DNA from: an uncultured candidatus Brocadiaceae bacterium
GTDB lineage: Bacteria > Planctomycetota > UBA1135 > UBA2386
Length of the DNA: 64,000 nt
Direction of reading: 5' to 3'
Assembly: GCA_964469555.1 (NCBI GenBank)
Contig: CAYYAQ010000002.1
Coordinates: 1,842 to 65,841 of the forward strand
Below, piece by piece: positions 6,161 through 17,779 of this stretch; the stretch's first letter is position 1; every line of letters starts with the position of its first letter. The notes under the pieces were generated by a model. The model searched no databases, was not told the DNA's origin, and worked only from the letters and a program-made list of their open reading frames with translations. Made by a program: the position numbers and the translations under genes.

Positions 6161-7330
6161 TCACTTCGCGTAGCGAAGGATCGGATTGTGGCCCGGGTCG
6201 ATGTACGGCCCGTATCCGTAGCTGCTCTTGGCCGTGGTGTTGTACTGGAACAACGCCGTCCGCCGCACGGCGCGCGGTTCCGTGGGGATCCGGATCATCG
6301 TGGCGCGGGACAGCTTCAGCCCCTTGGTTTGTGTGTCTTCGAACATCGCCTGCGCCCAGATCTCGAGGCCCGTGTGCGCCTTGTTGATCGGTACCAGCCC
6401 GTCGGGTGTGCCGCTCGGAAAGATGTAGCCACTCCACGCACCGGGAGCCGGTGACGCCAACCGGGTGTTTACCAGCAGGAACCTCCGTACGTCGAGGTAC
6501 AGCAGATTGCAGGTGATGCCCGTGAACGGAAAACCACTGGGGATGCCGACGAAGCTCACTACGTTCACAACGGGTCTGGCCCGAGCCGTGAAGTAGCTGA
6601 ACGTGAAGAGGCGGTGCTTGCCGCGGTACTTCGCGTCGTGGTGGTTGGAGCCGTACGCCGTGCAGTGCAGGAAGTTCGTCGCCGGCAGCGACCCAGCGCT
6701 GTCGATGCAGCCTCCTTTGGTCCCCGCCTTCCCGAAGTAGGTCTGCGGCGCCTCGTTGAAGGACGCGGATGGGAAGGCATCGAGGAAGTAGTGGTAGATC
6801 TTGCTCGTCGCCCAGGCGGCGTTGTTAGCCAACGTGCCGCCATTGAAATCGAAGTCGAGGCAGATGTCCTTGTTGCCCGTGTAAGGCCAGGTGGTCCCGA
6901 AGGGAAACCGCTTCGTCCACTTCGTGGGTAGGTTCGTCGGGGTGCCTATATTCGTGGGCCAGGTGATCGACCCGGAGAAGACGCGCGTGGGAGCGCCGTT
7001 CGGGTTGAGGCTGAACGTCGGGACGATGTTGTCCATGTCGCCCTCGCCGATGGACAACCTCACGTCCGACCACGTCCGGCCCATCGAGGACGTCGAGGTG
7101 CTCGCCCTGAAATCGATTCGCATCGCGACCTCCTTGACGAGCATGGTCGACTTGAGGAACTCGCCGTCGAACAGCATGTGTCGGGCGCTCGGATACGCGC
7201 CGAACAGGTAGGACTCGACATCGCCCTCGATGCTGAGAAGCCCGGTCGGGGAGGTGACGTGAGTCTGCGCCGTGGTGTGTCCGCAGAGGAGGAGCAGGAC
7301 GCTGAGCAGTGGTATTCGATTCCGGTGCAT
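6161..7330 (-). CDS. secreted hypothetical protein (uncharacterised family)
   Basis: Start taken at the internal ATG giving MHRNRIPLLSVLLLLCGHTTAQ (signal peptide). The C-terminal motif TGLEIWAQAMFEDTQTKGLKLSRATMIRI is related to the other two loci. No known domain recognised. Confidence 0.7.
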   Translation of the reverse strand: MHRNRIPLLSVLLLLCGHTTAQTHVTSPTGLLSIEGDVESYLFGAYPSARHMLFDGEFLKSTMLVKEVAMRIDFRASTSTSSMGRTWSDVRLSIGEGDMDNIVPTFSLNPNGAPTRVFSGSITWPTNIGTPTNLPTKWTKRFPFGTTWPYTGNKDICLDFDFNGGTLANNAAWATSKIYHYFLDAFPSASFNEAPQTYFGKAGTKGGCIDSAGSLPATNFLHCTAYGSNHHDAKYRGKHRLFTFSYFTARARPVVNVVSFVGIPSGFPFTGITCNLLYLDVRRFLLVNTRLASPAPGAWSGYIFPSGTPDGLVPINKAHTGLEIWAQAMFEDTQTKGLKLSRATMIRIPTEPRAVRRTALFQYNTTAKSSYGYGPYIDPGHNPILRYAK

Positions 7331-7448
7331 GGGGGGGCGGGGGCCTGGATTCGGCACCTTCCTATTAAACCGCATTCTCGATGGGTTTCGAGGGGGTCTG
7401 ATGAGGAACCTGTGGTGGCAATGCCATCGTGCCCTATCGGTGCAGTGT

Positions 7449-9592: not shown

Positions 9593-10051
9593 TTATCCCG
9601 ACTCGCCCGCTTCTTCCCCATCTCGCGGGGGACGCCCGATCAGATGGTTCACGTAGCAAGCCGCGAACAGCACCCCGGCACCGGCGTGGATCCAACCGAG
9701 GGCGCTGCGAAACGTCTCACTCTCGACGACCTGCAGGCAGTAGCCACCGAGTACGAGCGGCACGAACAGGAGCACCAGGACGATGCCGGTGTTGCGTCGA
9801 TGGGCATTCTTGAAGCCGATGCGTTTCCAGATGTGGTCGATCCAGATGAAGCCAACGGCGAAGACGAGCACCGGCGCGACGACGATGTGGATGGCGGTGA
9901 GAAGCGGTTGCCAGCGATGTTCGACGGCGAACATCTCCAACTCGGTCTCCTCGGGGGGCGAGGACAGGAACACGATCCACAGGAGCCAGAACCCGGTCGC
10001 GGCCATCGCGGTGATGGCGAGGTGCAGGATCCAGGCCGTGGTGCGGCTCAT
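9593..10051 (-). CDS. 4-TM His-rich membrane protein (possible b-type cytochrome / DUF4405-like)
   Basis: Start taken at the ATG giving MSRTTAWILHLAITAMAATGFW; it overlaps the upstream stop (ATGA at 10048-10051). Four hydrophobic helices carry His residues (ILHLAI, AIHIVV, GWIHAG, YVNHLI). The upstream part of the 372-aa track ORF is Arg-rich noise. Confidence 0.65.
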   Translation of the reverse strand: MSRTTAWILHLAITAMAATGFWLLWIVFLSSPPEETELEMFAVEHRWQPLLTAIHIVVAPVLVFAVGFIWIDHIWKRIGFKNAHRRNTGIVLVLLFVPLVLGGYCLQVVESETFRSALGWIHAGAGVLFAACYVNHLIGRPPRDGEEAGESG

Positions 10052-10665
10052 CGCTTGGCGCCTTTTGCCTGCGTCTTTGCTTTGCCCTTGTTCTTCGGTT
10101 TGGGGTCTTTCTTGCTGGGTTCCTTCGCGGTCGGCTTGCCGAAGACAGTCTGGTGTAGCGCGAGGATCCGATCGACGCAGCGCGTCATCGCGCGCACGGT
10201 GAGGGTGGCGCCGGTGATGCGCGGGACGTCCTTGCCGGGGCGTACCTGACCGAGTCGTTTCTTGGCCAGCTTGCCGACCCACTTCTTGGGCGCGGCGTAG
10301 CGTTTGGGCTCGGCGAAGGCGAGGACCTCCACCCGATCGACCGTCAGTCTGGGAGTGACGACCACCATCAGGAGCTGCTTCTTGCTGCGGACCTTGTGCA
10401 CGTCGAACCACGCGGTGCCGACGAGCGTCTTGCCGCGGCGCGCGATGTACGCGAAGGCCATCGACTTCGTGAACTTCCGGCCAGTGAGCTTGCCGAGGGC
10501 GAGCCGCTGCTTCTCGGTCAGCGTGATGGTGCGACGCTCGACCGCGCACTTGGGGAAGGCGAGTTTCAGCGCCTTCTCGGTCGTCATCTTCACCTGGCCG
10601 TGTGCGCAGGGAGCGACCAGAAGCAACGCCACGGCGATCTGGAGGTGGCGTCGGATATCGGGCAT
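10048..10665 (-). CDS. secreted FMN-binding domain protein with ApbE flavinylation motif
   Basis: Signal peptide (VALLLVAPCAHGQ). Contains the VPRITGATLTVRAM motif ([ST]GA[TS] flavinylation site). Lys-rich tail. Its ATG overlaps the porin stop (TGATG at 10663-10667). Confidence 0.75.
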   Translation of the reverse strand: MPDIRRHLQIAVALLLVAPCAHGQVKMTTEKALKLAFPKCAVERRTITLTEKQRLALGKLTGRKFTKSMAFAYIARRGKTLVGTAWFDVHKVRSKKQLLMVVVTPRLTVDRVEVLAFAEPKRYAAPKKWVGKLAKKRLGQVRPGKDVPRITGATLTVRAMTRCVDRILALHQTVFGKPTAKEPSKKDPKPKNKGKAKTQAKGAKR

Positions 10666-11933
10666 CAGAACACGTATCCGAAGGAGATCTGGAAGCGATC
10701 GTCGCCCTCATCGAGCGCCTGGAAGTCCGCCTTGATCACGACCTCGTCGATCGGTCGGTAGTGAACGCCCAGCGTCAGGATCGTCTCCTTTTGTGTGCGA
10801 TCGGGCATGTAACCCCGCGCCATCTTGGCCTGGGTATCGATCATTTCGTACCGGAAGTACGGCATCACGGTCTGCGTGGACTCCGAGCTGACGAGTTTCA
10901 TCACGTCGTAGCCGACTTCGCCGTAGTAGCCGTGCATCCGCTTGGCGAGGTTCTCGCCGGTGTTCATGTTGAACGTGCCGGTGTTCTCGAGGAACGCGGA
11001 CGCGTAGAGACCGCGGACAAACCACCCGTCGGCTTGGTACTGGGCGTGGCCTTCGACGATCGTGGTGCGCATCGCGGGGATCTTGTAGGTCTTGGTGCCC
11101 TCCTTGTGCACGCCATCCTGTCCCGTGTCACCGTAGAACACGGACGCGCCGACGGTGAACCCGCAGTCGCAACTCCAGTCGAGCCCCCCGACGTAGGCGA
11201 AGTCATCGGCGGCCGAGCGGTTGCCCTTCTGCCGGCCGCCACGCAGACCCTTCTTGTCGAATTCCTCGCCGTTGAGGCTCGTGAACACGTTCGACTTGTA
11301 GCTGAGGTTGCCACACGCGCCGTGGATGCCGAGTCCGGTTTCACGCCATGTCGTGGGAATGATGCGACGTTCGGTCTCGGGGCGTTGGGCCGACAGGTAG
11401 GTCGTCGGCTCGTGCATCTCGTTGATGAAACCCATTGGCACGAGGAGCAAGCCTGCGCGGACGTTGAACCCTTCGCAGGCCATGTACTCGAGGTAGGAGA
11501 ACTCGACCGACGCGGAGCCACCGCCGGAACTCGTGCCCGAGCTGCTGCTCGTCGAACCGTGCTCGTATTCGATCTCGCTGTTGAAGACCCACTTCTCGTC
11601 AAACTTGTAGCCGACGTAGAGAACCGTCCGGAGAGCATCGAAGACGTCGGTCGCTCCGGATATCTGTTGGTAGAGGAACTCGCCGTAGCCGCCGATCGAA
11701 ATACCCTCGTCCTGGGCGTAGACCTTGGATGCGGCTGGCCCCAGCCCGAACTTGCTCTCGCCGAGGGCAGGGACGAAGCTGCCGAACTGCAGCCGTTCGA
11801 TTTCCTCGCTGTAGGCTTCTTTGAGTTGCTGGTGGTCCTTCTCGAGTTTCTCGAGTCGTTCCGTGACCGTCTGGGCGGCGAGGATCGAGGGGAAGAGGAA
11901 TGTCAGGCAGATGGCGATGGGCGCGGTTCGCAT
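10665..11933 (-). CDS. outer-membrane beta-barrel porin-like protein (porin O/P-like, N-terminal coiled coil)
   Basis: Signal peptide, coiled-coil TVTERLEKLEKDHQQLKEAY, alternating aromatic/Gly-rich strands, and a C-terminal ...ISFGYVF. Confidence 0.7.
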   Translation of the reverse strand: MRTAPIAICLTFLFPSILAAQTVTERLEKLEKDHQQLKEAYSEEIERLQFGSFVPALGESKFGLGPAASKVYAQDEGISIGGYGEFLYQQISGATDVFDALRTVLYVGYKFDEKWVFNSEIEYEHGSTSSSSGTSSGGGSASVEFSYLEYMACEGFNVRAGLLLVPMGFINEMHEPTTYLSAQRPETERRIIPTTWRETGLGIHGACGNLSYKSNVFTSLNGEEFDKKGLRGGRQKGNRSAADDFAYVGGLDWSCDCGFTVGASVFYGDTGQDGVHKEGTKTYKIPAMRTTIVEGHAQYQADGWFVRGLYASAFLENTGTFNMNTGENLAKRMHGYYGEVGYDVMKLVSSESTQTVMPYFRYEMIDTQAKMARGYMPDRTQKETILTLGVHYRPIDEVVIKADFQALDEGDDRFQISFGYVF

Positions 11934-11950
11934 TGTGAGATTTTCGCAGG

Positions 11951-12976
11951 TCAGTGGGGGAGGGGGAATTCAAGCGGTATGGAGCCGCGCAACCCGGGAG
12001 TCCGATGCGAGCGGAAGCCGCCAGCGGTTCTCTCGAGGAAGAGCGCTTCCACGCCGGGGAGTTCGGTGGCGAGCTTCAGGCCCTCGATGGGGCCCAGGAC
12101 GAACAGCGCCGTTGACAGGCAGTCGGCGGCGCACCCGGCGTAGTCGTCGCCGGCGACCACGACCGTGACTGCGCCCCAGTCGTCGACTGGTCGACCGGTG
12201 CGCGGATCGAGGATGTGCGAGTAGCGTTTTCCGCCGACGTGGATCGCGCGCTCGCTGTTGCCGGACGTGGCCGCGGATCCGCTCGGAGGCAGTTCGATCG
12301 CGCCGATCACCATGTCGCGTCGATCCGGGTTCGCGACGCAGATGCTCCCCGGTTCTCCATCGCGATACCACCAGGCGAGCTGACCGCCGAAGTCGAAGTT
12401 CACGGCGGCCACGCCGTCGATTCTCCGGGCTGTGCGGATCGCGTCGTCGATGGCGAGCCCTTTCACGAATCCGCCCTCGGCGAGGAGCGCGTTTCGCTGG
12501 CGAGTCACGCTGTCCTTGCCGACCAGGAAGTGCTGCATCCCGCTGGCCGCTCGTGCCAGCGCGATGGTCGCGGCGCCGGGGGCGGTCGAGGGAGCGGGGC
12601 CACGGCGGCCCCCCCAGGCCTCGAGCAGGCGACCGATGGCCGGGTCGAAGGCTCCGCCTGTGCGGTCCGACCAACGGCAAGCGAGATGGAGTCCGGCGAG
12701 GAAGCGGGCATCGACCGGCGTCGGGACCCCGACCGCCGTGTCGTGGAGGCGCCGAAGCACGCTGTCCGCGCGCCAACTGCTCCATCGTTGATCCGCCGCA
12801 AGCACTGTATTAATAGATGCTTCTGCCGCTTCCTCGGCCTGGCTGCAGGTCGTCGCGGTGACCCGGATCCCGAGCTGCGTGCCCATGGTGATCACCACGC
12901 GGTCGGCCATCTCGGCGCGCGGCAGGGCGCAGCCGGAGACCAGATAGAGGGTGACACAGGCGAATCGAGTCAGCAT
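11951..12976 (-). CDS. apbE: ApbE-family FAD:protein FMN transferase (lipoprotein)
   Basis: Start chosen to give MLTRFACVTLYLVSGC (lipobox). Contains GGAFDPAIG, GGFVKGLAID and YSHILDPRTGRP, typical of ApbE. Confidence 0.9.
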   Translation of the reverse strand: MLTRFACVTLYLVSGCALPRAEMADRVVITMGTQLGIRVTATTCSQAEEAAEASINTVLAADQRWSSWRADSVLRRLHDTAVGVPTPVDARFLAGLHLACRWSDRTGGAFDPAIGRLLEAWGGRRGPAPSTAPGAATIALARAASGMQHFLVGKDSVTRQRNALLAEGGFVKGLAIDDAIRTARRIDGVAAVNFDFGGQLAWWYRDGEPGSICVANPDRRDMVIGAIELPPSGSAATSGNSERAIHVGGKRYSHILDPRTGRPVDDWGAVTVVVAGDDYAGCAADCLSTALFVLGPIEGLKLATELPGVEALFLERTAGGFRSHRTPGLRGSIPLEFPLPH

Positions 12977-13129
12977 GGGATGGACATTATTGAGATGTAG
13001 TCTCAATTACAACCCCAACGCCCTGTCCGGTCCCGCTATTTCGAGCCTCGCGACCGGACCAACGATCGGTCGACGAACCGCGGTTGACCACCACTTTTGG
13101 CAAGACTCCCCGCTACGTTACCGACCCGC

Positions 13130-13699: not shown

Positions 13700-13773
13700 A
13701 GGGACGTGATCAATCTCCCAAAAGACCGATCAGCTCTGCCGCGGGCACGCAATCCCTGTCCACCGCGTGCACC
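13700..13773. repeat. 74-bp perfect inverted repeat, copy B (native 3' end of the otsA-otsB fusion gene)
   Basis: Exact reverse complement of 2168-2241. Covers the last 19 codons, the stop and 10 downstream nt of the 13710-15983 gene. Confidence 0.95.
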
Positions 13774-15983
13774 AGGTCGCGCAGCAGCGCACGGACCTTC
13801 TCCGGGGACTCGATGGTGAATCTCGCGTCGTCGACCGAACCCCCGACGTGCACGCTCACGGCATGAGATGGCAGCGCGCGGTACATGTCGATATCCGTCC
13901 GATCATCGCCGAGCGCGAGGATGAATGTGTCCGGCCCAGCGTCCTCGAGCACTTGACGAACGTAGTTGCCTTTGTTCACTCCAGCGGAGCGGACTTCGAT
14001 CACCTTGTTGCCGGAGATGACCTCGAGGCCGAGACCGGGGACGCGCTGTTCTAGCGACGCCATCAACTCGCGCGAACGCCACAGCCCGTAGTCGTCATCA
14101 GCCATCCGGTAGTGCCACGCTATGGAGAATCGCTTTTGCTCGAGCGTCGAACCCGGAACCTCGCGGCAGACTTCTTCTAGCATCTCCCGCACCTTGGGCA
14201 TCCACCCGAGGTCGTACGTGTGCGACTCTTGCCAATCTTCGCCGAGGCGCCGGTAGAGCGACCCGTGCTCGCACGACAGGTGGACCGGCAGTTCGCCGAA
14301 CCAGGTCTCGAGATTGCTACCCGTGCGCCCGCTCACGATGTGCACGTCAGTGTCGGGAATCCCGGTCAGAGCCCGAACCGTATCCAGAATCTCATCGGTC
14401 GGCTGCGCGAGTTCGGGCGTCGAGGTCAACTCACGGAGAGTCCCGTCATAGTCGAGGAGCACGATCCTGCGTTCCGCTCTCGCGAAGTCCGCGACGAGAG
14501 TCGTGATCGCGTCTCCACTCATCAGCGTGCGGTTGCGCAGGGCTCGACCCTTCTTGGCGGTCTCGTGAAGTTCCGCGAGGAATTCTCTCGCCCAGATCTT
14601 GCAGTCCATCTTCTCGACGCGCGCAATCATCGGACGCATACGATCCTCGCGCTCCTTGGGGTGAACGTCGAGCGCCTCCGTGATCGCATCCGCGGTCCGT
14701 TCGATGTTCCAAGGATTGACGAGAATCGACTCGCCCAGCACCTGCGCCGCGCCGGCAAACTCGCTGAGGATCAGGATGCCGTTCCCGTGCTGTTGGCACA
14801 GGACGAACTCCTGGGCGACGAGGTTCATGCCGTCGCGCACCGGCGTGACGATTCCGACATCGGAGAATTGATAGAGCGCGACGAGGTGCTCGGGTTTCAC
14901 TTCGCGGTGGATGTACTCGACGGGCGTGTGCCCCGGCCCGCCGAACCTCCCGTTGATCCGACCGACGTAACCCTCGATCTCGGCCTTGAGGTCCCGATAC
15001 TCGGGAGTCGCCAGGCGAGACGGCACGATGACTTGCAGCAACGTCGTCGTCTCGGCACGTCGCGGATCCTTCTCCAGGTAGCGCTCGAATGCCTTGAGCT
15101 TGAGGAGCACGCCCTTCGTGTAGTCGAGGCGCTCGACCCCGAGCAACACTCTTCGGCCCTGGTATCGCCGCCTCAGTTTTTGCTGGTATTCAAACGTCGC
15201 CTCGCGCGCCGCGACGGAGCGGAAGTAGTCGGTATCGATGCCGATCGGGTTGCGTCCGATGCCGATGCGCCGATTCTCGAAGCTGATGCCGTCAGGGTCC
15301 GAGTCCAATCCGAGGACGCGGAGGCAAGACGTCCGGAAGTGCTGCGCGTATCCGTTCGTGTGGAACGCGACGTAGTCCGCACCGAGGACGCCACGGAGCA
15401 ATTCCTCGCGGTGCGGGAGCAACTGGAAGATCTCGGACGAGGGCCACGGGATGTGCATGAAGAACCCGATCTCCAGGTCGGGGCACTCCGCACGCAGCAT
15501 CCCCGGGACCAGCATCAGGTGGAAGTCGTGGATCCACACGCGATCGCCGGGCACGCAGTGCTCGAGGATCTTGTCTGCGAACCGTCGATTGATCCTGCAG
15601 TACGACTCCCAGGCATCGATCTCGTAGGTGACCTTGTCCGTGAAGTAGTGGAACAACGGCCACAAGATCTGATTGCAGTACTCGGTGTAGTAGCTGGCCT
15701 CTTCTGCCGCAGACAGGAAGACGGGAAAGAGGTCGTCCTTCGCCAGCGTCGACTCGATGTCATCGCGTAGAGACTCTGGACTCTCACACCCGGGCCAGCC
15801 CACCCACGAGAAGTCCGACTCGGTCTTCACCCCCGCCATCGCGGACGCCAGGCCACCGTTGCTCGCCTTGGAACTCCAAGCGCCATCGGTGATTCGGAGA
15901 CTGACAGGCAGCCGGTTGCTGACGACGATCAGTCGATGTGTAGTTGCGGCCATACCTGTGGCGATAATTGAATCGGGGGTCAT
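13710..15983 (-). CDS. otsA: bifunctional trehalose-6-phosphate synthase / phosphatase (OtsA-OtsB fusion)
   Basis: 757 aa. GT20 part (HRLIVVSNRLPV, VWIHDFHLMLVP) followed by a HAD phosphatase part (IVLLDYDGTL, GDDRTD). An alternative start is the second ATG, 10 codons in. Confidence 0.9.
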   Translation of the reverse strand: MTPDSIIATGMAATTHRLIVVSNRLPVSLRITDGAWSSKASNGGLASAMAGVKTESDFSWVGWPGCESPESLRDDIESTLAKDDLFPVFLSAAEEASYYTEYCNQILWPLFHYFTDKVTYEIDAWESYCRINRRFADKILEHCVPGDRVWIHDFHLMLVPGMLRAECPDLEIGFFMHIPWPSSEIFQLLPHREELLRGVLGADYVAFHTNGYAQHFRTSCLRVLGLDSDPDGISFENRRIGIGRNPIGIDTDYFRSVAAREATFEYQQKLRRRYQGRRVLLGVERLDYTKGVLLKLKAFERYLEKDPRRAETTTLLQVIVPSRLATPEYRDLKAEIEGYVGRINGRFGGPGHTPVEYIHREVKPEHLVALYQFSDVGIVTPVRDGMNLVAQEFVLCQQHGNGILILSEFAGAAQVLGESILVNPWNIERTADAITEALDVHPKEREDRMRPMIARVEKMDCKIWAREFLAELHETAKKGRALRNRTLMSGDAITTLVADFARAERRIVLLDYDGTLRELTSTPELAQPTDEILDTVRALTGIPDTDVHIVSGRTGSNLETWFGELPVHLSCEHGSLYRRLGEDWQESHTYDLGWMPKVREMLEEVCREVPGSTLEQKRFSIAWHYRMADDDYGLWRSRELMASLEQRVPGLGLEVISGNKVIEVRSAGVNKGNYVRQVLEDAGPDTFILALGDDRTDIDMYRALPSHAVSVHVGGSVDDARFTIESPEKVRALLRDLVHAVDRDCVPAAELIGLLGD

Positions 15984-16027
15984 TCAGGGAATGGGGACGC
16001 AGCCATTCAGGCCGCGGGTGGCGAGTG

Positions 16028-17779
16028 ATGGAGTACGGGGTTATCGGCAATTGCGCCCACAGCGCTTTGGCAGAAGCGGGCCGCATTGTGTGGTTATGTT
16101 GGCCACGCATGGACAGCAGTCCCGTATTCGGATCGCTGCTCGACGAGGAGAAGGGTGGCCGGTTCGAGGTTGAGGCCATCGACCTGCGGGACGTGCAGCA
16201 GGAGTATGTCGAAAATACCAACATCCTCCGCACGGTCTTCACGAGTGACTCGGGGTGTTTCGAGCTCCTGGACTTCGCGCCGCGTTTCAGCAAGCACGGT
16301 CGCCCATTCAAGCCGAGAATGCTCGTGCGCATCCTCCGACCGCTCAAGGGTGAGCCGCTGGTGCGCGTCCGGATCGATCCGACGTACCACTACGGTCGGG
16401 TCGAGATCACGAGGTGGACGGCCAGCAACCACATCGAATTCAACGGCCTGCCAGCGCCGCTCCGACTCACGTCGAACATCCCGCTGACGTACCTGAACGA
16501 GGGTCGGAGTTTCGTCCTGGCGCAGGAGTCCCACCTCGTGCTCACCTACGGCGAACCCCTCCAAGAATCGATCGAGCACACGTCGAATCACTACTACGAA
16601 CGCACGCGTGACTACTGGCGGAGCTGGGTCAAGCGGTCTCGCATTCCGAGGGACTACCAAAAGGAAGTCATTCGCTCGGCGTTGGTGCTGAAGCTGCACC
16701 AGTTCGAGGAGACCGGCGCAATCATCGCGTCAACCACTACGAGCCTGCCCGAGTTTCCAGGGTCTGGACGCTGCTGGGACTACCGGTTTTGCTGGCTGCG
16801 GGACGCGTACTTCTCGTTGAACGCGTTCGAACGACTCGGTCACTTCGACGAGATGGAGTGCTTCCTGATCTACCTGCGCTCCATACTGGATACGCACGGT
16901 GATGATCTCCAACCTCTCTACGGCATCCTCGGCGAAGCCGAGTTGACAGAGGAGATCCTCGATCACCTCGATGGTTTCCGAGGCGAGAAGCCGGTGCGGA
17001 TCAGCAACCAGGCGCACGAACACGTTCAGAACGACGTCTACGGCGAGATGATCCTGGCGATCAGCCGGATGCTCCTGGACTCACGATTCGTCGGGTCCGA
17101 AGGCCTGGACGGCGCGGGCCCGCTCATGGAGCAGCTGCTCGGACAGATCGAGCAGCGGCTGGAAGACCCGGACGCCGGACTGTGGAAGTCGCGCGGTCAG
17201 GTACAGCTGCACACGTTCACATTGCTGACACACTGGGCCGGTGCCAGGCGCGCCGCAGAAGTCGGAACGATCATCGACAGCAGCAAGCTGCGCGACCGGG
17301 CGCACCGCGTGATGAAGCGGGTGCGGAGCATCATCGAGACGCGGTGCTTCGATGACGAGTCAGGCGCTCTGACTCAAGCCGCCGACACCAAGAACCTGGA
17401 CGCGGCGATGCTCCTGGCGCTGCACTTTGGCTTCTGGGAACGCGGCGATCCGGCGGCAGCGCGACACGTCGACGCCATCCGTGACCAGTTGAGCGTCAAC
17501 GGCCTGCTGAAACGCTACAACGTCGAAGACGACTTCGGCGAGCCGGAGGCGGCGTTCACGGTGTGTTCGTTCTGGCTGGTCGAAGCGCTGGCGATCGTCG
17601 GAAAGACAAACGAAGCGCGCCTGCTGTTCGAGAGACTACTCGGTCACGGCAACAAGCTCGGCCTGTTCAGCGAAAACGTCCTTCCGGCGACCGGACAGAT
17701 GTCCGGAAACTTCCCGCAGACATACTCGCACGTCGGCTTGATCAATGCAGCGTTCCGATTGTCGCGGAGTTGGGAGTAG
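16028..17779 (+). CDS. glycoside hydrolase family 15 (glucoamylase/trehalase-like)
   Basis: Start at the ATG giving MEYGVIGNCAHSALAEAGRIVWLCWPRMDSSPVFGSLLD. Contains CWLRDA and an (alpha/alpha)6 catalytic-region pattern. Divergent from otsA-otsB. Confidence 0.9.
   Translation: MEYGVIGNCAHSALAEAGRIVWLCWPRMDSSPVFGSLLDEEKGGRFEVEAIDLRDVQQEYVENTNILRTVFTSDSGCFELLDFAPRFSKHGRPFKPRMLVRILRPLKGEPLVRVRIDPTYHYGRVEITRWTASNHIEFNGLPAPLRLTSNIPLTYLNEGRSFVLAQESHLVLTYGEPLQESIEHTSNHYYERTRDYWRSWVKRSRIPRDYQKEVIRSALVLKLHQFEETGAIIASTTTSLPEFPGSGRCWDYRFCWLRDAYFSLNAFERLGHFDEMECFLIYLRSILDTHGDDLQPLYGILGEAELTEEILDHLDGFRGEKPVRISNQAHEHVQNDVYGEMILAISRMLLDSRFVGSEGLDGAGPLMEQLLGQIEQRLEDPDAGLWKSRGQVQLHTFTLLTHWAGARRAAEVGTIIDSSKLRDRAHRVMKRVRSIIETRCFDDESGALTQAADTKNLDAAMLLALHFGFWERGDPAAARHVDAIRDQLSVNGLLKRYNVEDDFGEPEAAFTVCSFWLVEALAIVGKTNEARLLFERLLGHGNKLGLFSENVLPATGQMSGNFPQTYSHVGLINAAFRLSRSWE

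Follow-up and report, generated by a model that had tools for sequence, protein, structure and literature searches.

The 64,000-nucleotide stretch analysed here (the window; contig CAYYAQ010000002.1 of assembly GCA_964469555.1, from an uncultured candidatus Brocadiaceae bacterium) contains, at 9593-12976, four co-directional minus-strand genes. These encode an ApbE flavin transferase, a porin, a secreted FMN_bind protein and a small membrane protein with four transmembrane helices (4-TM protein). Comparative evidence from related loci indicates that the four-gene unit is probably an envelope module for reductive iron acquisition, repressed by metal and most likely under the control of Fur.

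Organization of the locus

The gene limits (Table 1) were taken from a reading of the minus strand between 9450 and 13150 and from the list of open reading frames (ORFs). An earlier note on this DNA had described the cluster and its tight spacing, and the re-reading reproduced both exactly: a 17-nt gap separates apbE from the porin gene (11934-11950), the porin and FMN_bind genes meet in TGATG, with one base (10665) common to stop and start, and the FMN_bind and 4-TM genes share the four bases of ATGA (10048-10051). The flanks encode a lactate permease, a DeoC-type aldolase, GcvH, an OtsA::OtsB fusion and a GH15 enzyme; because these genes lie on the opposite strand or are functionally unrelated, the four genes were regarded as a self-contained unit. 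Scans for sigma-70 promoters and terminators gave no informative result.

Table 1. Features of the module in the window
Feature	Position (nt)	Strand	Description
ApbE	11951-12976	-	341 aa, ATG at 12976, lipobox YLVSG/C
Porin	10665-11933	-	422 aa, signal peptide, heptad helix, C-terminal ...FGYVF
FMN_bind protein	10048-10665	-	205 aa, signal peptide
TGATLT flavinylation motif	10198-10215 (aa 151-156)	-	Predicted FMN-carrying Thr154, nt 10204-10206
4-TM protein	9593-10051	-	152 aa, four-helix inner-membrane protein, candidate dihaem cytochrome b
Fur-box-like palindrome	12989-13007		ATTGAGA-N5-TCTCAAT, ends 12 nt upstream of the apbE ATG

ApbE and its predicted substrate

The window ApbE matches the Pfam profile ApbE (PF02424) over profile positions 1-266 with 180.1 bits against a cut-off of 25.6 (8.2e-53), but it falls short of the E. 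coli equivalog profile NF007774, scoring 91 bits where 498 are required. Its reading starts at the ATG at 12976 with the N-terminal stretch MLTRFACVTLYLVSGC, in which a lipobox, recognized by eye as MLTRFACVTLYLVSG/C, is present, and ApbE is predicted to be an extracytosolic lipoprotein.

The FMN_bind protein passes the Pfam profile FMN_bind (PF04205) with 26.9 bits against a cut-off of 22 (7.7e-6), and the TGATLT that the earlier note had read in it was found at aa 151-156. Since flavinylation motifs are defined as [S/T]GA[S/T] (PMC8238504), Thr154 is the predicted site of FMN attachment, and the secreted FMN_bind protein the predicted substrate of ApbE. The conservation of this Thr, which the earlier note had suggested checking, proved complete: the GAT Thr is held in 76/76 of the orthologues that include the region, as is the core GAT(L/M)(T/S), with GST, GCT and GAS as rare variants. 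The C-terminal tail of the window protein (aa 173-205, window 10048-10146) is Lys/Pro-rich and strongly basic, with 12 K/R in 33 residues. Some orthologues from Planctomycetota end in comparable KP-rich tails, and most others have an acidic tail or none; a functional role of this Lys-rich element was rejected, as the tail is variable or absent across orthologues.

A four-helix family with invariant histidines

The window 4-TM protein falls below every Pfam and NCBIfam cut-off, and its family is annotated "hypothetical protein" in all sources. A single-sequence word-indexed search gave only four proteins, and an exhaustive profile search was needed to recover the family, which comprises 715 cluster representatives (50% identity) at E <= 0.001 and 407 at E <= 1e-10. 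Among 71 homologues with 26-62% identity to the window protein, the only invariant columns of the alignment are G20, H55, H73, H122 and H136. The reading in the earlier note depended on conserved His pairs in this protein, and the four invariant His do form two pairs: in the confident AlphaFold (AF2) model derived from this alignment, a four-helix bundle (pLDDT 91, pTM 0.84; helices 3-29, 48-78, 83-108 and 112-138), H55 and H73 lie 18 residues apart on helix 2, and H122 and H136 lie 14 apart on helix 4. The loops 30-47 and 108-112 are acidic and the loop 75-88 is strongly basic, which argues for an N-in/C-in topology and therefore for one His near each membrane face on each of helices 2 and 4. 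On that topology, the periplasmic face would be the nearer one for H55 and H122 and the cytoplasmic face for H73 and H136, as expected if two bis-His haems are stacked in the membrane.

Cytochrome b of the bc1 complex carries two His on its second helix (B) and two on its fourth (D). The 4-TM protein resembles it in having two His on each of helices 2 and 4, but with a helix-2 spacing of 18 residues, not 14. Together with the Ni_hydr_CYTB/cytochrome b561 proteins (HyaC, FdnI), which place their His on helices 1, 2 and 4, the bc1 cytochromes b share the four-helix bundle with the model and provide its best structural matches; the best Foldseek hits in the PDB, to the cytochrome b of E. coli hydrogenase-1 and to bc1 cytochromes b, are weak (E 0.05, TM 0.58). 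The earlier note had proposed assigning the protein by hidden Markov model (HMM) to DUF4405, cytochrome b561 or MsrQ, and this yielded only sub-threshold matches. Ni_hydr_CYTB (PF01292) is reached below threshold by 18/71 members, the window protein scoring 16.0 bits against a cut-off of 30.1, and DUF4405 (PF14358) by 8/71 relatives (best E 0.0014), with no match for the window protein. A profile search of PDB sequences with the 4-TM protein returned nothing. A named family for this protein was rejected, given the sub-threshold Pfam and NCBIfam scores, the empty PDB profile search and the weak Foldseek matches; it belongs to an unannotated family that resembles a minimal dihaem cytochrome b and may bind haem.

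One family member (P0223, L085:2262-3599) is called as a single protein with a Phenol_MetA_deg-type outer-membrane barrel. An internal segment resembling a signal peptide suggests that two adjacent genes were read through, in which case L085 would have a second barrel downstream besides the upstream porin.

A divergent and highly conserved porin

The window porin reaches no Pfam or NCBIfam cut-off and, like the 4-TM protein, is labelled hypothetical throughout. It has 5911 homologues in a 90%-clustered collection and is present in at least 591 species-representative genomes. By record title, its hosts belong to Planctomycetota, Gemmatimonadota, Acidobacteriota (Thermoanaerobaculia, Holophagales), Verrucomicrobiota and Kiritimatiellia, as well as Myxococcota or "Deltaproteobacteria", Omnitrophota and one spirochaete; the cultured host among the listed genomes is Saltatorellus ferox Poly30, which carries the module (L038; NZ_CP036434.1, about 5.283-5.286 Mb). 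The earlier note had described a beta-barrel with an N-terminal coiled coil and the ending ...GYVF, and the AF2 model (pLDDT 82) agrees: an N-terminal helix (aa 23-46) precedes a barrel of 16 membrane strands whose third loop, L3, is long (aa 165-196). Foldseek matched it to OmpT, OmpU, OmpC and PhoE (E about 1e-13, target-normalised TM up to 0.70). The strands, L3 and the C-terminal aromatic residue fit the classical 16-strand porin fold, for which a trimeric state is presumed. The profile Porin_O_P (PF07396) was matched by 14/33 porin relatives (best 5.9e-11) and by the window protein not at all at E <= 1, so that the family may be read as a divergent sister group of Porin_O_P and not as a member by the curated cut-off.

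Mean column identity across phyla is 53%, unusual for a porin. Loop L3 is nearly fixed (P.G.IN..HEPT......RP.TE.RIIPTTWRE), L4 bears a conserved GLRGGRQKGNR, an alternating glutamate run (SEIEYEH), probably facing the lumen, is conserved, and three histidines are invariant; this conservation argues for a specific rather than a general pore. The N-terminal heptad helix is conserved as well, with R26, E31 and L37 nearly invariant. DUF3570 proteins are flavinylated ApbE substrates of about 420 aa (PMC8238504). As to a flavinylated porin of this DUF3570 kind, the only [ST]GA[ST]-like site is SGAT (aa 92-95), whose Ala is not conserved, and PF12094 was matched neither by the porin nor among the top 25 families of 33 relatives; this candidate role was rejected.

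Conservation of the module and coupling of its parts

Synteny was examined in 80 species-representative loci found via the porin, whose six-frame ORFs were searched with profiles of the four proteins. The FMN_bind gene directly follows the porin gene in 71/72 evaluable loci and is itself directly followed by the 4-TM gene in 59/66 loci (divergent in one more), which bears out the porin synteny on which the earlier note had made its reading depend; apbE lies directly upstream of the porin gene in 43/68 evaluable loci and anywhere in the locus in 47/68. Three loci reached independently via the 4-TM protein (in a Bryobacteraceae genome, in Latescibacteria and on a 9.3-Mb contig) also hold porin, FMN_bind and ApbE. 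The order porin-FMN_bind-4-TM thus recurs over many phyla, far beyond chance. Gene fusions tie the parts of the module together further: P0095 (L001) is an in-frame fusion in which ApbE runs directly into the coiled-coil end of the mature porin, no signal peptide intervening, and 4-TM::ApbE fusions account for 7/8 long family members scanned (445-545 aa). The two of these whose sequences were read, P0160 and P0235, contain one more hydrophobic segment, the fifth, by which ApbE would come to lie on the periplasmic side.

This coupling bears on a reading in which the products are physically joined. In it, the porin trimer would offer its periplasmic coiled-coil stalk as a docking site for the flavoprotein (and ApbE), giving a flavin-based analogue of the porin-cytochrome complexes. 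Electrons would pass to a substrate within the pore or beyond it, so that Fe(III) or Mn oxides outside the cell would be reduced, and not solutes already taken in. Such docking would be in keeping with a porin that is almost never found without FMN_bind, with the conserved heptad helix, and with the natural ApbE::porin fusion, which joins exactly where this helix starts; moreover, L3, L4 and many lumen-facing Glu, His and Arg are invariant across phyla, which exceeds the needs of a general diffusion pore. However, a barrel of 16 strands with a folded-in L3, like that of OmpF or PhoE, is too narrow to sheath a flavodoxin-sized domain of about 170 aa (MtrB-type sheaths have about 26 strands), the Lys-rich FMN_bind tail that might thread the pore is not conserved, and neither is the Ala of the SGAT site that might carry a flavin in the porin itself. 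We therefore consider a trans-envelope conduit of this kind unlikely. A related version, in which the porin is the outer-membrane end of a complex and the stalk-bound flavoprotein (and ApbE) reduce metal at the invariant Glu/His-lined pore for iron acquisition, is similarly unlikely; if true, the porin-cytochrome systems would have a counterpart, based on flavin and poor in haem, in Planctomycetota, Gemmatimonadota, Acidobacteriota, Verrucomicrobiota and other groups. The 16-strand fold with its constriction loop makes a substrate channel the more likely role of the porin. Of the "envelope-spanning electron conduit" put forward in the earlier note, the coupling of an inner-membrane candidate, a flavoprotein and a porin therefore stands, whereas electron passage through the outer membrane is unlikely with an ordinary 16-strand porin of this kind.

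In L057 (8862-9398) and L081 (8797-9309), the order is porin-FMN_bind-X-ApbE, the 4-TM protein being replaced by a different polytopic protein of about 170 aa (X), and L078 is probably alike, with the same porin-FMN_bind-gap-ApbE spacing. X bears a conserved E(V)xHFHxF...LTHLMLF motif, matches nothing in Pfam and is dissimilar to the 4-TM family; it looks like a swapped membrane electron carrier.

Iron genes near the module

Among 116 immediate neighbours of the module surveyed with Pfam (longest ORFs left out), FeoA is the second commonest family, behind a lineage-restricted Kdo kinase, and FeoB and iron-dependent repressor domains recur too. Genes feoA and feoB lie together within a few kb of the module in 8/80 loci from at least five phylum-level groups, with labels including Verrucomicrobia, Kiritimatiellia, Omnitrophota, Thermoanaerobaculia and Gemmatimonadetes. 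They are co-directional with and abut the module in L025, L047 and L080 and are divergent in L060, L064 and L082. The fur gene adjoins the module in L047 and L084, and genes for dtxR-like repressors lie directly upstream of the porin gene in L071 and L080. On the Latescibacteria contig, the genes run dtxR-porin-apbE-FMN_bind-4TM-feoA, and a 636-aa gene without Pfam record then takes the position that feoB occupies in L080. Counting this contig, feoAB genes adjoin the module in nine loci and fur or dtxR-like genes in five. In the genome of the window, FeoAB is encoded elsewhere.

All-against-all clustering of the flanking ORFs revealed no further family in more than 13 loci, the top clusters being lineage-restricted or resembling high-GC antisense ORFs. 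The Kdo/WaaP-family lipopolysaccharide kinase is an immediate neighbour in nine Planctomycetota loci (within L012-L046), probably as lineage-specific synteny and not as a functional partner. In Saltatorellus ferox Poly30, a 913-aa protein with N-terminal sigma-70 regions 2 and 4 and a long uncharacterised C-terminal part is encoded directly downstream of the module (L038:9326-12067), with a GmrSD-type restriction enzyme farther on.

A conserved operator upstream of the module

The palindrome upstream of apbE is a perfect 7-5-7 inverted repeat, AT-rich in a genome of 63% GC, and the sole such site in the window. It is kept in the relatives L086 and L087 (one 96% identical, one 65%), where the surrounding DNA is unalignable. 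Scans covered 87 fetched loci (86 distinct, as L002 and L003 are one place) and the window, 946 kb in all. The core TTGAGA-N5-TCTCAA is exact in 18/87 fetched loci; with at most one mismatch there are 50 sites in 44 sources, that is, 43/86 distinct loci and the window, and inspection against gene coordinates placed all 50 just upstream of the first gene of the module and none elsewhere in the 946 kb. Allowing two mismatches adds a site at this position in about 14 further loci.

The symmetrised consensus is ATTGAGA(C/A/T)T(C/G)A(G/T/A)TCTCAAT. The classical Fur box is a 7-1-7 repeat, TGATAAT-n-ATTATCA, and the operator core TGAGAnT-n-AnTCTCA has this 7-1-7 architecture, agreeing at 10/14 positions with TGATAATnATTATCA of the Baichoo-Helmann model. 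Individual sites are nearer still to a Fur box, such as ATTGAGAATGATTCTCAAT in L015. In L047, which has its own fur gene and keeps the box, the site precedes fur-feoA-feoB-apbE-porin, and in L084 the variant TGAAAAT-T-ATTTTCA precedes fur itself. No box was found upstream of the module in the seven re-scanned loci with dtxR and/or feoAB (L025, L037, L060, L064, L071, L080 and L082). The operator is good comparative evidence for metal-responsive repression, in which the regulator would most likely be Fur.

A proposed route of reductive iron acquisition

The mechanism that we infer, including the haem binding, the direction and donor of the electrons, the substrate, the role of the porin and the identity of the regulator, would run as follows. 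The ApbE lipoprotein would covalently attach FMN to Thr154 of the secreted FMN_bind protein. The 152-aa inner-membrane protein would bind two b-type haems, one through the periplasmic-side pair His55/His122 and one through the cytoplasmic-side pair His73/His136, and would carry electrons across the inner membrane, from the quinol pool or a cytoplasmic donor, to the flavoprotein. The flavoprotein would then reduce periplasmic Fe(III) species admitted by the dedicated 16-strand porin, and the resulting Fe(II) would enter via FeoAB or an equivalent ferrous transporter. In iron-sufficient cells, a Fur-family repressor on the palindrome just upstream of apbE would switch the operon off. Iron is favoured over its rivals because of the feo, fur, dtxR and operator evidence, and the tentative link to iron in the earlier note has gained these neighbours and the conserved Fur-box-like operator.

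Several observations weigh against this proposal. A 16-strand porin is not the usual entry for Fe(III) chelates, which as a rule require TonB-dependent receptors, and the 4-TM protein fails all cytochrome HMM cut-offs and has weak structural matches (E 0.05). In the window itself, no feo, fur or other iron gene lies beside the operon, where genes for lactate permease, GcvH and trehalose metabolism are found instead, and feoAB adjacency is seen in about 10% of loci only, which are not phylogenetically independent. The operator is Fur-like by architecture only, with G in the half-site where classical boxes have T or A, and the regulator may be a Fur-family paralogue (Zur, Mur, PerR) or an unrelated protein. 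Lastly, regulators of the DtxR family and FeoB-like transporters also serve manganese.

The last point leads to a reading that keeps the architecture and changes the substrate: manganese acquisition, reduction of an oxyanion such as chromate that enters via a Porin_O_P-type anion channel, or repair or detoxification. Porin relatives do match the phosphate/anion-selective Porin_O_P, the conserved loop GLRGGRQKGNR is basic, the DtxR family includes Mn sensors and some FeoB paralogues carry Mn, and most loci have no iron gene beside the module. In the Bryobacteraceae genome (L088:706-3181), genes for a ChrA transporter, DUF1529 and ChrB_C precede porin-FMN_bind-4TM-ApbE by about 0.9 kb on the same strand, which could hint at another substrate; this chromate neighbourhood is a single case, however, whereas FeoA/FeoB with Fur or DtxR-like regulators is the sole neighbour theme recurring across phyla, and the conserved operator is built like a Fur box and in two loci stands ahead of the fur gene. 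A substrate other than iron is accordingly regarded as improbable.

Reversed electron flow, in which a donor in the periplasm or outside the cell, for example Fe(II), feeds the quinone pool, would make the module one of respiration or oxidation instead of assimilation. The sequences do not fix the electron direction, and flavinylated systems can in principle run both ways (PMC8238504), but co-location with FeoAB and regulation of the iron-starvation type fit the production of Fe(II) and not its consumption, and neither the flanking-ORF clustering nor the Pfam survey of neighbours showed a conserved oxidase, cupredoxin or c-type cytochrome partner nearby. This direction seems very improbable.

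Comparison with known systems

Flavinylated envelope proteins are a recently recognised way to move electrons out of the cytoplasm, and many ApbE-bearing genomes are still without an assigned flavinylated system (PMC8238504). Flavinylation clusters of the PepSY-like, MsrQ-like and P19 kinds have been linked to assimilatory iron reduction, the PepSY-like ones being Fur-repressed (PMC8238504). The closest parallels to the present module are the PepSY-like/DUF2271/ApbE clusters with VciB and FoxB-type ferric reductases (Meheust et al. 2021, PMC8238504; Huang et al. 2024, PMC11334425), with which it would share an inner-membrane dihaem protein with four axial His (a candidate here), a periplasmic protein flavinylated by ApbE (predicted here), and the link to iron assimilation and Fur repression. 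PepSY-like clusters sometimes also encode an outer-membrane uptake component, in the form of TonB-related genes, whereas here a 16-strand porin is almost obligatory. Unlike in those clusters, PepSY_TM and DUF2271 are absent, the membrane protein belongs to a 152-aa four-helix family without Pfam model, the flavoprotein is of the FMN_bind type, and the transporter is FeoAB rather than VIT1. None of the four proteins matched, at E <= 1, the class-defining domains of the five transmembrane classes of Meheust 2021 (NapH-like, MsrQ-like, PepSY-like, DsbD and NQR/RNF-like; PF12801, PF01794, PF03929/PF16357, PF02683, and PF03116 with PF00175).

Proteins of the DUF4405 family linked to apbE have been shown to bind haem b (PMC11334425). 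The 4-TM protein is like the DUF4405-type cytochromes b and FezC (PMC11334425) in being small, polytopic and apbE-linked, with four His as its most conserved residues and a weak HMM resemblance; unlike DUF4405, for which the model has six helices, it has four, falls below the DUF4405 cut-off, and occurs in Gram-negative phyla together with a porin. The porin, for its part, shares with OprP/OprO (Porin_O_P) and with OmpF, OmpC, PhoE and OmpU the predicted 16-strand barrel, long L3 and C-terminal Phe, and differs from OprP/OprO and the general porins in its periplasmic heptad helix, its exceptionally conserved L3 and L4 and its near-obligate coupling to a redox pair. As in MtrCAB and PioAB, an outer-membrane barrel is encoded with periplasmic and inner-membrane electron carriers, but the module pairs a flavoprotein with a barrel no larger than that of an ordinary porin, in contrast to multihaem c-type cytochromes threaded through a much larger barrel.

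Periplasmic reduction that feeds FeoAB is documented for Bradyrhizobium (abstract of PMC10760861). As proposed for the present module, the FsrB-FeoAB system of Bradyrhizobium japonicum reduces ferric iron in the periplasm and passes Fe(II) to FeoAB; FsrB, an inner-membrane haem reductase, acts on the iron directly, the substrate arrives as ferric siderophores acquired from the surroundings, and the abstract mentions no flavinylated partner or dedicated porin (PMC10760861).

Neither porin nor FeoB is mentioned in a flavinylation context in PMC8238504 and PMC11334425, and full-text literature searches returned no description of an ApbE-porin or flavinylation-FeoB system. Judged by sequence and gene order, the module appears to be a further class of flavinylation-associated extracytosolic electron-transfer system, related to known iron reductases and defined by the four-His four-helix protein and the near-obligate porin. 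This class adds a cytochrome-like family that has no annotation (715 representatives at 50% identity) and a family of dedicated porins (5911 homologues), and is found in at least 591 species, mostly of uncultured environmental phyla. If the iron reading is true, it would provide a siderophore-independent reductive uptake route for groups that are abundant in soils, sediments and oceans and whose iron physiology is essentially unknown. The operator would be a candidate iron-regulator motif common to several phyla, which would allow regulon prediction in them, and the cultured Saltatorellus ferox Poly30, as a carrier of the module, offers an experimental handle.

Other genes in the window

A 404-aa protein with an N-terminal hydrophobic, signal-like segment and no Pfam match is encoded at 6161-7375 (minus strand), between the aldolase and lactate permease genes. 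At 13710-15983 (minus strand) lies the trehalose-6-phosphate synthase::phosphatase fusion (GT20 and Trehalose_PPase), head-to-head with the GH15/trehalase-like gene at 15968-17779 (plus strand); the listed ORF starts of these two genes overlap by 16 nt.

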